Source of the DNA: a virus
Lineage: Duplodnaviria > Heunggongvirae > Uroviricota > Caudoviricetes
DNA: 64,000 nucleotides
Reading direction: 5' to 3' (one strand)
IMG/VR virus record: IMGVR_UViG_2881684137_000004
Location: 128,001 to 192,000 of that record
Shown: in pieces, positions 6,781 to 27,575 of the stretch
Layout of the letters: each line of letters opens with the position of its first letter
Position numbering within the stretch: position 1 is the first letter of the stretch
Made by a program: the position numbers and the translations under genes
Notes under the pieces: generated by a model
What the model was told of the DNA's origin: nothing
The model's input: only the letters and a program-made list of their open reading frames with translations
The model's database searches: none

Positions 6781-9700
6781 TCAACTAATCTCTTGCTTCC
6801 CCCATTTGATTCTAACATTACCTTCAATGTCTCTTTCTTTTGACATCAACATGTCTAGTAAGTTAAAATCCACGCCAAACTTATCATACAATTCTTCATC
6901 GTCAATTTCTTGATTCTTCATAAATAAATTCAACTTCTCTTTTGTCAATATTAATCCGAGTAGGTTGCTTTCGATACTATTCTCATAAGTAAAAAAGTGA
7001 ACCTCCTTTTTGTCAATTGAATTGTAACGTATGAATCTAAAGTAGTACTGACTCATTGTGGCTTCATTCCAGGATAATTCAGGGATAATCACTTTATTGA
7101 CAAATCCTATATTCATGCTGCTACTCAAACTCTGTTGAGTCGAAATTAGTATTCCATTTTTCGACTCTTGAAGCTGCTGGATTATCTGTTTTCGTTTATT
7201 TAGGCTAACTTTATCCCCAGTGATTACGAAAACAGGTCGGCTAGGAAATCTGTATTTTATCGCCTTAACATATGCATTGACAGTTTTTATATGCCGAACT
7301 CCAATGGCAACATACTCATCTTCCCACTTATCAATTTTGTTTAAAACGTCAACAAATTTATTTGGTAATTGTTTACTTTGATACTCCCCGAACACTTGAG
7401 GAGCTGCACAAACTTTTAACATGAGCATTAACTGATTAAGGATCTCAAGCATTCTATCTTTACGAATATTGCCTGTTGACTTAAACAAGTGCTTCATCGT
7501 ATAAAATTCTTCAATTATTCTTTTATACAATTCTTTTTCCGCTGAGTTGAAGCGACTTTTTTGCTGAATAATATCATAAATCTTTTCTCCTCTCACTTCT
7601 TCGAAGGATCTTGTTATTATTGTTTTATTGATTAAATCTTTTAAGACATCAGCGTTATATACATCTTGTGTATGTTGTCCAATACCAAAAACGGTTATTT
7701 TCTCAGGAATGTGAGATTCTGAAAAAAGTCTATATCCCTTATTATAGGCTGGAATAGGCTTTAAATAGTTTTCGTTTCTTACTTCATTTAACTTCTCTTT
7801 ATCATCCTTGTCTCTTTTGAAAATATACTCACAGTTACTTATCATATTGACACTATTATTATAAAGTAATTCGAACTGTGTCGCCGCTTCAGCAATTGTA
7901 TTTCTCGTCATGGTGCCAGTCATAAGCGTTTTATACTTTACCTTTCTGAATACGCTCAAAATGGCTCTGGTGCGTTTAGAAACTGAACTGGACATGTTGT
8001 CAGCTTCATCAAAAATCAAAGCAACTTTTTGTGATTGCATTTTAACGAATTTTTTTATGAACCTTTGATACTTTGTTAATTGGTTGAGTGTTACAATGAC
8101 GATTTGGCCAGGTTGGATGTTGTAAATATCTTTTAAGGTGTTGATCCTTATGAAGTCGAATCCATAACTTTTCAAAATGACTGCCCACGTATTATTAATT
8201 GCAATTGCAGTTGAGACTATAAAGACGTTTCTAGCTTTATTGACCTGCAACCTGTAAACTAGATTTGCAACACCTGACACACTTTTTCCAGAACCCTGCC
8301 CCCATTGTAAAAATCCATATTGCTTTTGGAGAATTTTGTTTGTATCTTCTTTTTGAATCAAATTCAATTTAATACTCTCATTACTATTGCTATCATAGAT
8401 AATGAGGTCATCCAAGAAATTACTGATCTTTCTATTCAAATTCATTTCAGAGTAGTATAGAGCTTGTGCTTTATACTTGGTAATCTTCTTATTTAATAAT
8501 TTTTTATATTTTTTATCCTCAAAAGGATAGTTATTATTTAAGACCATATTAAAGAAAGTATCTTCTTTTTTACCTGTCTTTGATAATGACAATTTCATTT
8601 TATGTGAATAAGCTTTCAATTTTATTCCGTACCTTGTTTTTACTAATTTAATTTCATCTCTTTCTATGTAATGCTGGTTTTTCAAGACTTTCTTCAAATA
8701 TGACAACACCTTATTTTTGGTAATTCTTATTTTCATCCACTCTTCGTATTTCATCGAATTTGGTTTGACTTGGTTGTAATATCTATTAACATATTCGCGA
8801 CATTTAGCATACTTCATGTTTATCTTCGAATTTCTTTTGATGTCAAATAAATACTTTTTAACCTTAAACTCAAATTCATCGTCTGGTTCACTTTGTAGAT
8901 TTTCTAAATATAGTTTACTCCGTATTTTTTCCTTCTCTTCGTAAAGTTGTTCTATGTATTTTTTAAAAATAATGCTCCCGTTCGATTCTTTAGGTTCTGT
9001 TATAGTTAATTCCTGTCCGTTTGAATATATTGTCTCCGGTATATAATCACTCTTTTTTTGGAATAGCATGATTTTAGTTTCAAACCTTTCGACCCCTACC
9101 GACTTAAAAGCATCATCGGGTAATCCAATATGATGAATAAAGTTGAACATTGCATTCATTTTTTTAATCATCCCTGAGTCTGTGAAATCATCAGACAAAA
9201 AAGATTTGGGTACAATGAGCGCTAATATCCCTCCAGGCTGCAAAAGCTCATGTGCTTTCCAGCAATAATAAAATTGACTTAAATATTCTTCTTTATCCAC
9301 TGTCCATTTTAAGTTAAATGGAGGATTCCCTAAAATTAAATCAAATTTAACTCCTGGTTCATAGCTCCTGATGTCTTCACAGCTTGAATTAACTTCCGGA
9401 TATAAAAATCGCATGACCTTGAATGCTTTTATATCAATTTCATTTCCGTAAACATTAGAAAGGTTGGGCAACCAATTAAAGAAGTTACCCATACCAGCGG
9501 TTAAATCTGCTATCAAATCATGCTCAGAAGGTTTTAAACAGTCAATAATGAACCTACATAGATTATGAATAGTGAAAAATTGACCGTTTTCTATTTCTTT
9601 TTTCGCTTCTGTGTAATCGTGAAAGTTATCAAAATCATTAAATGATAACCCATGTAAACCACCGTCTCCAGTGTAAGAATTATAAATGTCTTCCGCTTCA

Positions 9701-9807
9701 ACATTGTACTTTTCAGTTAGTTTATTATCAATCAAGTACAGTATTTTTTCGTTTATTACTTTTCTCTTGTCTTGAGGGATTTCAGTAGGTTGTATTGTAT
9801 ACTTCAT
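6781..9807 (-). CDS. N6-adenine DNA methyltransferase fused to SF2 (SNF2/DEAD-like) helicase, DarB-like architecture
   Basis: GQFFT, DLTAGMGNF (SAM motif I), GNPPF (motif IV); GQGSGKS Walker A, DEAD, TGT motif III. Confidence 0.85.
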   Translation of the reverse strand: MKYTIQPTEIPQDKRKVINEKILYLIDNKLTEKYNVEAEDIYNSYTGDGGLHGLSFNDFDNFHDYTEAKKEIENGQFFTIHNLCRFIIDCLKPSEHDLIADLTAGMGNFFNWLPNLSNVYGNEIDIKAFKVMRFLYPEVNSSCEDIRSYEPGVKFDLILGNPPFNLKWTVDKEEYLSQFYYCWKAHELLQPGGILALIVPKSFLSDDFTDSGMIKKMNAMFNFIHHIGLPDDAFKSVGVERFETKIMLFQKKSDYIPETIYSNGQELTITEPKESNGSIIFKKYIEQLYEEKEKIRSKLYLENLQSEPDDEFEFKVKKYLFDIKRNSKINMKYAKCREYVNRYYNQVKPNSMKYEEWMKIRITKNKVLSYLKKVLKNQHYIERDEIKLVKTRYGIKLKAYSHKMKLSLSKTGKKEDTFFNMVLNNNYPFEDKKYKKLLNKKITKYKAQALYYSEMNLNRKISNFLDDLIIYDSNSNESIKLNLIQKEDTNKILQKQYGFLQWGQGSGKSVSGVANLVYRLQVNKARNVFIVSTAIAINNTWAVILKSYGFDFIRINTLKDIYNIQPGQIVIVTLNQLTKYQRFIKKFVKMQSQKVALIFDEADNMSSSVSKRTRAILSVFRKVKYKTLMTGTMTRNTIAEAATQFELLYNNSVNMISNCEYIFKRDKDDKEKLNEVRNENYLKPIPAYNKGYRLFSESHIPEKITVFGIGQHTQDVYNADVLKDLINKTIITRSFEEVRGEKIYDIIQQKSRFNSAEKELYKRIIEEFYTMKHLFKSTGNIRKDRMLEILNQLMLMLKVCAAPQVFGEYQSKQLPNKFVDVLNKIDKWEDEYVAIGVRHIKTVNAYVKAIKYRFPSRPVFVITGDKVSLNKRKQIIQQLQESKNGILISTQQSLSSSMNIGFVNKVIIPELSWNEATMSQYYFRFIRYNSIDKKEVHFFTYENSIESNLLGLILTKEKLNLFMKNQEIDDEELYDKFGVDFNLLDMLMSKERDIEGNVRIKWGKQEIS

Positions 9808-12430: not shown

Positions 12431-12463
12431 TATTCGAGCAAACAACACAATGTTTGCTCGAAT
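12431..12463 (-). terminator. hairpin downstream of Csx16-like gene
   Basis: ATTCGAGCAAACA-ACACAA-TGTTTGCTCGAAT. Confidence 0.55.
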
Positions 12464-12500
12464 AAATATCAACTATACTCTGTACGCTGTACGCTGTACG

Positions 12501-13070
12501 CTATCCTGAAATTGCAGTTACTCTATATGCCCCTTTAATCTGCATTTGCAAGCCCTGCTCCAGCAACTCGTTAACTGACATGTCGCTGTGTTTGGCAGCG
12601 TCAAACCCTGGTACAGTTACAGTGGTATAAGCATCGCAGTGAGCAAGCATAAACGGTGGAAGTTGGCCATATACATGCTTGCCTGCTACATCCTCAACAC
12701 TTGCATTACCTGTAATAATGGGTGTGCCAGACAACTCTGGCATATTAGTAAGCAACAGATCTATAGCTGCCTGATGCTGTGTGACAATAATCACTGGAGC
12801 AGCCGACTCTACTTTGTGGACTTGGTACAAGTCCACATCAAGATCAGCAGCTAGCACATCTTCCGCTGAAGCGTACTTTGCTCCCCGCGGAATACGCGGT
12901 GCATAATACTCAGTATATCCCTGCTCTGCAACTACTGGAGCAGGCAAAACTGACAATACAGCAAGAACGGCATCTTGATTTGACAATGGAGCGAGTTGCT
13001 GAAACGCTGGAAAACCAAGAACAGTAAGTTTGCGGGAAGATAAAAGATCATTAAGTTTTGTAATTTTCAT
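12501..13070 (-). CDS. tandem Csx16-like (VVA1548-family) protein, candidate cyclic-oligoadenylate ring nuclease
   Basis: C-half IIVTQHQAAIDLL..ASVEDVAGKHVYGQLPP..DMSVNEL matches Csx16 pattern (SRHxGA..GDxVIGTLP..ELS); N-half is a degenerate repeat (VLSVLPAPVVAE..IPRG..SAEDV). Start re-set to MKITK with AAGGAG RBS. Confidence 0.6.
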   Translation of the reverse strand: MKITKLNDLLSSRKLTVLGFPAFQQLAPLSNQDAVLAVLSVLPAPVVAEQGYTEYYAPRIPRGAKYASAEDVLAADLDVDLYQVHKVESAAPVIIVTQHQAAIDLLLTNMPELSGTPIITGNASVEDVAGKHVYGQLPPFMLAHCDAYTTVTVPGFDAAKHSDMSVNELLEQGLQMQIKGAYRVTAISG

Positions 13071-13184
13071 TTTAAATTTTCTCCTTTTGTACCGACTCCT
13101 TGTTGAGCCTAGTACGCTTACCTGATACTCATAATTATACAAGTTTATATGTGTAAAGTCAATATAATATTATATATTTTATTT

Positions 13185-14275: not shown

Positions 14276-14566
14276 CTAAGCAGTTGTTAACTCTCTATTC
14301 AGGTCACGAATGAAAGCCATGATATTACCTACCTCATAACGATTAAAGCGCTCAGGATGCTTTTTATAGGTGTCTGGAGCTTCCATTGGGTCAATGTCTC
14401 TAAAACCGTCTACAAAGGCCACTGAAGGCCGTCCAGCTTTGTCATACTTGCGTACTAGTTCACGGTACTTAGCTTTATAGACGATCCGCCCACAATCCCA
14501 AACCTGTGCATAGATAGGCGTATGGTGCGTTGTGGTTTGCGCGGTTTTTTGGTAAGTGAAAATCAT
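14276..14566 (-). CDS. hypothetical protein
   Basis: 96 aa, AGGAGG RBS. Confidence 0.7.
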   Translation of the reverse strand: MIFTYQKTAQTTTHHTPIYAQVWDCGRIVYKAKYRELVRKYDKAGRPSVAFVDGFRDIDPMEAPDTYKKHPERFNRYEVGNIMAFIRDLNRELTTA

Positions 14567-16373: not shown

Positions 16374-16512
16374 TCCCTGATATGTATTTATTACCTTAAT
16401 TATAATTGAAAAGTTTATGTTTGTAAAGTTATTTTTGTATATTTATTATTTGATAATTACGGTGAACATAATTTGATAAATACTTAAATTAATATCACTG
16501 GCAATGCAATAG

Positions 16513-18509: not shown

Positions 18510-18650
18510 CTAAAAACCTTCTTCCATTATGTATTTGTTACTTTTATTATAATCGTTTACTTTATATTTGTAAAGTTTTATGTATATTTTATTTATTTTT
18601 AATTACAATGAAAACCGAATTCTATCGTAAGAGAAAGGGGAATTACTCCC

Positions 18651-19342: not shown

Positions 19343-19464
19343 CCACCTAATATGTATTTGTTACTTTGTTACTTTTATTATAAATCAAAAGTTTATAAAC
19401 GTAAAGTATTTTTGTATATTTTTTTACGATGAATCCTTATTCTAATGAAGGGGAATTTCTCCCC

Positions 19465-26413: not shown

Positions 26414-27575
26414 TGTGAATCCTCCGATTAATTTATATTATGTATTTGTTATCTTTATTATAAGCGATTACTTTATATATGTAAAGTGTTTTATGTATAT
26501 TTTATTTATTTATTTTTTTGGAATTTATTTTTGGAAATTTTCAATTTTGGAATTTGGGTGATTGATCGTGAGGTATAGTGATGATGGTAGCAAGGTGAGA
26601 GATGAGGCTTATAAGGCTGCGTAGGGATGAATAGAGGATAAGGATAGGATGGGATGGAGGAGAGATTAGGGATGAGTTGTGGAGTTGTGAGGGTGGATTG
26701 AGTTATGGATTGGGGAATATTGGTAATTTTATATTTTGAATAATAGTTATCATTTGATAAGTATTTGAAGAAACGCTGCCTGTTACAATAACGATGTTGG
26801 CGAATGTCTTATCTCTCCCGCTCCTGTATATTAAATTAATTGGAATAATCATACAAAAACTTTTTTGCTGCCTTCAACAGCATGTGCTAATCATGTATCT
26901 GATTTGCCTGGACTGTCATTCATATTCTCCTGTATCATTACCATATATTGCTAAAGTGTCATCTAATCACTATTAGACTACAGTTTTAAAGGGTTATTGA
27001 CCTCTATCCAGACCATAAGCAGGGGGCTACTTAACAACTTTTATATCCATTTATTACCAAATATCAGCATGAGCACATCAACTCCCACACTCAGCTTAAT
27101 TTATCAATCGATACAGCATATTTCTCCACTCTCCCACTATTCTCATCCTCATCTTCCCACTAGTCGTTATCGTAATTGTTATCGTAAACTATGCATATTC
27201 ATTACCTTTTCTCACCTAATATTTATCATCATTTCACCTTTTTCTCCACTTTACCTCTCATTCCCCCAATACTATCAACACATTTACGATATCAACTATC
27301 GATATCACATTTCCCTTCCTCAATTACACTCATCAATTTCCCAATATTCTCAACAGTTAAATACTCATTTCCATACTCATTTTCATCTTTATATTTACTC
27401 ACTATCTCACTCACGATAACATTTACCACCTACCCGATCTCATCTATAATCCTACAATTTTTAACTTTATCACCTACTCTTTATCGTAAAGTTATTGAAA
27501 TTCAACAGTTATTCACCTATACTATCCTCAATTGTCTAATTTACTATTTATTACTACGAATTGGAGTCTTAATAA

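Follow-up and report, generated by a model that had tools for sequence, protein, structure and literature searches.

A candidate single-chain, Csx16-like ring nuclease or sponge against type III CRISPR signalling encoded by a prophage

The question raised by this locus is what a prophage gains from a protein that carries two Csx16-like domains in one chain. Phages are known to silence type III CRISPR signalling mainly with ring nucleases of their own, of which only AcrIII-1 and AcrIII-2 have been characterised (PMC12751052). Csx16, which is associated with type III CRISPR, was proven to be an enzyme in 2025, namely a ring nuclease specific for cyclic tetra-adenylate (cA4), and members of its family have been seen in two phage genomes (Hoikkala et al. 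2025, PMC12409355). The stretch of DNA analysed here (64,000 nucleotides, hereafter the window) contains the following gene and associated signals.

12501-13070, minus strand: coding sequence of the tandem Csx16-like protein, 189 aa, with its stop codon TAG at 12501-12503
13081-13087, minus strand: ribosome-binding site AAAGGAG, 10 nt 5' of the ATG, read directly from the sequence
13134-13162, minus strand: sigma-A/sigma-70-type promoter TTGACT-17-TATAAT, near-consensus (11/12 positions)
13142-13159, no strand assigned: operator-like palindrome ACTTTA-N6-TAAAGT with 1 mismatch, overlapping the -35 box and the spacer
13142-13159, 16412-16429, 18559-18576, 19390-19407 and 26470-26487: the copies of this palindrome in the window
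12431-12464, minus strand: hairpin with a perfect 14-bp stem and a 6-nt loop, 37 nt 3' of the stop codon (z -4.5)

The 189-aa gene at 12501-13070 is real, and the ATG at 13070 is taken as its start because homologues share its initial MK(L/I) residues. A reading extended to a TTG at 13142 was rejected, as its start would precede the -10 box and would not agree with this shared beginning of the homologues. The original prediction, made from the sequence alone, had given the gene an operator-controlled promoter and a terminator of its own. The promoter was borne out: TTGACT-17-TATAAT at 13162-13134 is overlapped by the palindrome, which occurs, with 0-1 mismatch, at 5 sites in the window against 0.78 expected, a count reached in 0/100 shuffles, and the five sites are candidates for a shared operator. 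The terminator stood in part: the perfect 14-bp hairpin is stable (z -4.5), but it has no T tract on its 3' side and is not called by the terminator scan. Its role may be in termination, in processing or as a binding site. No recurrence of the hairpin sequence as a cassette boundary repeat was found. A CTGTACG-like short direct repeat (~3 copies, 12473-12500) lies directly 3' of the stop codon.

The gene had also been described as more GC-rich than its neighbours, which holds for the overall values (0.45-0.48 against 0.27-0.36 in the flanks), but most of the excess is a matter of amino-acid composition. By codon position the GC content is 0.62/0.39/0.35 (GC3 0.35), compared with roughly 0.36-0.47/0.25-0.33/0.24-0.38 in most neighbouring genes; the excess falls mainly on positions 1 and 2 and therefore reflects a protein rich in Ala, Val, Gly, Asp and Glu more than a foreign codon usage. 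High GC as a mark of recent import is weakened by this codon-position analysis. A clearer compositional outlier is a 96-aa ORF at 14276-14566 on the minus strand (GC 0.44, GC3 0.42), which may be recently acquired cargo.

The two halves of the protein and their motifs map to the window as follows.

12504-12803, minus strand: C-half, residues 90-189, Csx16 domain by hhalign, Pfam and an ESM Atlas model
12774-12782, minus strand: T97-Q98-H99, at the position of the invariant (S/T)RH of Csx16
12654-12668, minus strand: loop G135-Q-L137-P138-P139, matching the G-x-LP-L motif of Csx16
12804-13070, minus strand: N-half, residues 1-89, beta-alpha-beta-alpha-beta-alpha-beta-alpha-beta, probably an eroded Csx16 copy
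12882-12890, minus strand: P61-R62-G63 in the N-half, at the position of the canonical PRGxE motif

Judged by its homology, the C-half is a true Csx16 domain, in line with the original prediction. A family profile of residues 90-189 aligned with a profile of short canonical Csx16 proteins over 83 columns in hhalign (99.8%, E 1.6e-27), and several full-length homologues score 27-38 bits against Pfam PF09652 (Cas_VVA1548, that is, Csx16), above the cut-off of 25, whereas the window protein itself reaches 16.1 bits over residues 95-145. One full-length relative bears the NCBI name 'CRISPR-associated protein Csx16', and public annotation already gives the name Csx16 to some family members. Comparison with Csx16 by HHpred or Foldseek, which the original prediction had named among its checks, gave a divided outcome: besides the profile-profile match, an ESM Atlas model of a 114-aa Csx16 cluster superimposed on residues 91-189 with a TM score of 0.69, but Foldseek against PDB and BFVD returned nothing at E 0.001 or better, and the structural matches of the protein are weak and generic. 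Searches of NCBIfam (TIGR02620 included), PHROGs and PDB sequences (phmmer) gave no match to the window protein.

The motifs of the C-half were compared with those of 25 canonical Csx16 sequences, which carry an invariant R-H (25/25), G-x-LP-x-x-L and a PRGxE segment, and their conservation was counted in 70 tandem relatives. After strand 1, the window protein lacks the Arg of the Arg-His pair (Q98) and keeps the His (H99), and its N-half has neither. H99 is kept in 66/70 relatives, with RH in 51/70 and QH in 10/70; QH is always accompanied by T97 and, in every QH member except the window protein, by V136 as well. TQH thus appears to be a recurrent subfamily signature (10/70) that does not look like decay, and there is no particular reason to take QH, as had been suggested, for a hint of binding over cleavage. 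The G-x-V-x-G-x-LP loop is present (G130-K-H-V-Y-G135-Q-L-P138), G135 and P138 being found in 70/70 relatives. PRGxE is absent from the C-half, which has G-F-D-A-A-K-H-S-D instead, and across the family this segment is replaced by D-x-x-x-D-G-D. The window copy alone has H161, Q172 and Q136 (D161H, R172Q, T136Q), positions at which 61-66/70 relatives have D, R and T, and there is therefore room for a changed affinity or a binding-only role.

For the whole protein, AlphaFold2 run with 30 relatives returned a pLDDT of 95 and a pTM of 0.86; the model shows two confidently folded domains built from the same succession of elements (strand-helix four times, then a long final strand), which upholds the proposed single-chain, two-domain build. 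The N-half folded alone gave the same outcome (pLDDT 94). That the N-half is a degenerate Csx16 copy, as had been claimed, agrees with this shared order of strands and helices, but the homology itself is weakly significant: the profile of residues 1-89 matched the canonical Csx16 profile with a score of 21.6, P 0.0016 and a probability of 16% (hhalign; 10-16% overall). The alignment is co-linear, with residues 35-86 lying opposite positions 40-93; it sets S-T-L-S-P-A against G-N-L-P-L and P-R-G against P-R-G-x-E and places the last strand in register, whereas six reversed-profile controls scored 9-12 (P 0.12-0.42). Single N-half sequences reached at most 7.6 bits against the Csx16 HMM, with ~20 of the 25 best matches in one register, whereas reversed controls reached at most 0.6 bits in scattered registers. 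The STLSPA-like and P61-R62-G63 motifs are kept in this half and RH is not. Each of these lines is weak, but together they make it fairly probable that the N-half is an eroded Csx16 copy.

In the N-half of the family there is no RH, and P61 is kept in 60/70 and R62 in 65/70 relatives, so that the two halves seem to retain complementary parts of the Csx16 motif set, PRG in the N-half only and (R/Q)H in the C-half only. Three of the four members without H99 are also without R62 (2x2 table 64/1/2/3, Fisher P 7e-4); these three are 27-42% identical and belong to two or three related lineages, perhaps representing two independent events. From this co-loss we infer that one site may be built from both halves.

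Given that Csx16 degrades cA4 and that viruses use other ring nucleases as anti-CRISPRs, a one-chain cA4 ring nuclease is the most economical reading, and homology suggests that the protein is most likely a cA4 ring nuclease or sponge directed against type III CRISPR. With moderate confidence, we lean towards a prophage-borne, Csx16-fold single-chain pseudo-dimer with a composite site, which would be expressed early and remove cA4. The halves would be arranged as the protomers of a Csx16 homodimer are, and cyclic tetra-adenylate would occupy one asymmetric pocket formed by both. The only active centre would be a composite one, to which the C-half contributes H99 and the N-half R62. The protein would then cut, or at least hold, cA4, and through its removal the CARF/SAVED effectors of type III CRISPR would not be switched on during phage replication. 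Early expression would be driven by the strong promoter of the gene itself when the shared operator is freed of the phage repressor. Counted against the ring-nuclease reading are the Pfam score of 16.1 bits against a cut-off of 25 and the lack of an NCBIfam match, the weak homology of the N-half, the few related lineages behind the co-loss of R62 and H99, the changes D161H, R172Q and T136Q at polar positions that are otherwise conserved, and a host genome with no match to Cas10, SMODS or SAVED.

The distribution of the family bears on this proposal. An exhaustive phmmer search retrieved 109 representative proteins, ~60 of which match residues 5-172; a further phmmer set, of 95-160 aa, matches only residues ~92-176, and a word-based homologue search found only the protein itself. 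The family is rare (~60 clusters) and was encountered only on mobile elements in a context sample made up of IMG/VR contigs, five named genomes, two phages and one plasmid; searches of 60 genomes related to the host and of 400 drawn from its phylum did not find it. Members are carried by 17 IMG/VR viral contigs, by Clostridium phage phiCs5676-1 and by Bacillus phage Shbh1, in which the member is gp42, a few genes from an Ocr-domain protein. In three of the five named genomes that carry the family, the gene has integrases close to it, or a pairing of FtsK with a replication initiator as is usual in integrative elements. The 510-kb megaplasmid pSC2 of Paenibacillus polymyxa SC2 encodes a 182-aa member (L041:8998-9546) with the RefSeq name Csx16, surrounded by hypothetical genes; an SLT transglycosylase and ParM are encoded in the vicinity, which is free of cas genes. 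Such restriction to mobile elements, together with the sporadic distribution, is typical of counter-defence cargo. Neighbour clustering revealed no conserved neighbour gene around family members, and PHROG scans of flanking genes were mostly blank. The annotated loci (two phages and pSC2) have no cas genes beside the family member, the unannotated loci having been sampled by neighbour clustering and by PHROG scans of some flanking ORFs. The mobile-element context without cas genes that the original prediction had noted was thus recovered, with none beside the gene or in the loci inspected and no Cas10 in the genome.

About 25 of the 60 clusters have C-terminal extensions of 50-220 aa, which are mostly mutually unrelated (two pairs match, BLAST E 1e-3), and ten long members scanned had no significant Pfam domain in their extensions. 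The copies of phiCs5676-1 and Paenibacillus campinasensis are of this long type. The extensions (proteins P0003-P0051, L002:5001-6029, L016:6989-8029, L027:8010-9116) include zinc-ribbon-like and very acidic ones, and that of P0011 contains a third Csx16-like unit without RH. Outside the family, two canonical Csx16 domains stand in tandem in an independent case, a metagenomic protein of 205 aa (P0077), with halves 63% identical and RH in the first half only (VTRH vs VTDK), showing that tandem Csx16 proteins do arise.

The window corresponds to positions 312198-376197 of genome contig C22 and lies within a 33% GC island of ~220 kb (C22 ~185-405 kb) in a host genome of 7.7 Mb and 48.3% GC. Prophages of the SPbeta type are far smaller than this low-GC block, which may represent a single jumbo prophage or two elements side by side. 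Phage genes in the window include a large terminase, a tape measure, a RecD2-like helicase and a methylase-helicase with DarB-like similarity, and the RNA polymerase of the window matches the RdRP family; this enzyme (YonO) is a hallmark of SPbeta-like phages. The neighbours of the Csx16-like gene are without known function. Four genes downstream on the same strand, at 6781-9807 (minus strand), lies a 1008-aa fusion of an N6-methylase and a DEAD-helicase (phrog_24008) with a DarB-like antirestriction match. Anti-defence functions may be grouped in the leftward early arm.

Models of Cas10 (Csm1, Cmr2) gave no match in the whole 7.7-Mb host genome, and neither did SMODS or SAVED, the SAVED search having been run without a positive control; a Cas1 gene is present on another contig of this genome. 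Among genomes of the host's family, a Cmr2-type Cas10 scored above the cut-off in 12/120, and within the host's genus in 4/9, while Cas10-like matches occur in 2/5 carrier genomes. Given these Cmr2 systems in the genus and Cas10-like matches in the carriers, these phages likely meet type III systems. In two same-genus genomes (G001 and G003, loci L039 and L040), type III-B cmr cassettes occupy the same chromosomal setting, adjoining an amine oxidase and an L-PSP gene. No CARF effectors were found among the ten flanking ORFs scanned beside these two cmr loci, which encode housekeeping domains, one RAMP protein and one weak winged-helix match.

A sponge, a sensor or an enzyme for another nucleotide is less likely than a one-chain cA4 ring nuclease. 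Were the protein a sponge, it would bind the cyclic nucleotide tightly in its one-chain pocket and sequester it without cutting, a behaviour that has been discussed for Csx15 (PMC12409355). The Q at a position where R is invariant in 25/25 canonical Csx16 sequences, the residues H161, Q172 and Q136 found only in the window copy, and the persistence of family members without both R62 and H99 could all be read in this way. The window protein nevertheless keeps both H99 and R62, and TQH with V136 forms a coherent subfamily signature (10/70) that differs from random decay, so that a pure sponge appears rather unlikely on the sequence comparisons. Less probable again is a sensor, in which the tandem Csx16 unit would detect a cyclic nucleotide and regulate a partner instead of serving as a counter-defence enzyme. 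In the relatives this partner would be the variable C-terminal domain, and in the present case a separate protein, acting for example in a phage decision or in element-borne defence. The extensions in ~25/60 clusters, including the long copies of phiCs5676-1 and Paenibacillus campinasensis, recall the sensor-effector fusions of CARF and SAVED proteins, yet they are small and without a recognisable effector domain, the window protein has none, no neighbour gene is conserved, and the conserved His and Arg fit catalysis.

The target might also be another signal than that of type III CRISPR, such as CBASS cyclic tri- or dinucleotides, cA3, cA6, or Thoeris or Pycsar signals. Csx15 is reported to bridge CRISPR and CBASS signals (bioRxiv 10.64898/2026.10.26.761840), and the D-x-x-x-DGD that stands for PRGxE in the C-half would give a pocket unlike that of canonical Csx16, in a host without Cas10. 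That same host has no SMODS cyclase either, Cmr2 systems are common in its genus, and the Csx16 that was tested was cA4-specific even at high enzyme concentration (PMC12409355), which together make a different target improbable. Finally, the weak and generic structural matches and the neighbours without known function would be expected of a Rossmann-like phage protein whose role is unrelated to immune signalling and whose likeness to Csx16 is ancestry only. The very strong profile homology to Csx16, the conserved motif residues and the sporadic occurrence of a family confined to mobile elements argue against this, and we consider it very improbable.

If the protein is a one-chain cA4 ring nuclease, the Csx16 family too would have been taken over by mobile elements, the R62/H99 pairing would amount to a natural experiment on the residues needed in the dimeric site, and the protein could serve as a compact means of quenching cA4 signalling. 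Further anti-defence domains may come to light among the variable C-terminal modules. A bolder proposal, which we regard as possible but doubtful, is that the family forms a distinct counter-defence class, an asymmetric fused Csx16 pair in which two symmetric sites have been pared down to one composite site that takes its Arg from the eroded half and its His from the intact one, with interchangeable C-terminal modules added in many relatives. Such a pair would add to AcrIII-1 and AcrIII-2 a third structural solution by which viruses remove cA4. It might make a single nick in cA4 or trap it with high affinity, and could provide a modular carrier for further anti-defence domains.

Among known systems, Csx16 is the closest. 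The C-half is homologous to it over ~85 residues of a small alpha/beta domain and shares its I-V-(S/T)-x-H start and its G-K-x-V-x-G-x-LP loop. Canonical Csx16, however, is a single domain of ~95-140 aa, modelled as a homodimer and located in type III loci, whereas the window gene encodes two fused domains in one chain and lies in a prophage without cas genes; RH has become QH, and PRGxE is retained in the eroded half alone, having disappeared from the homologous one. The available parts of the literature mentioning Csx16 do not appear to describe a tandem form. P0077, like the window protein, has two Csx16 domains in one chain with RH in only one, but it is a recent duplication in which both halves keep the QRG motif and the RH-lacking half is the C-terminal one. 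With AcrIII-1/Crn2 (DUF1874) the window protein would share, by analogy, the role of a virus-encoded cA4-destroying enzyme, although it has no DUF1874 match in Pfam. AcrIII-1 has a His-based active site at its dimer interface and is a symmetric homodimer with two active sites, in contrast to the asymmetric one-chain pair with one His considered here. With AcrIII-2/SAVED, the analogy would lie in the concept of a cyclic oligonucleotide bound by a single chain with two fused CARF-like lobes, although no SAVED sequence signature was found in the window protein and its lobes probably derive from Csx16. AcrIII-2 is reported to work as a dimer that sandwiches cA4 in a shared site (PMC12751052), and the idea possibly shared with it is viral use against cA4 signalling. 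The window protein is probably an undescribed one-chain form of a known kind of anti-CRISPR.
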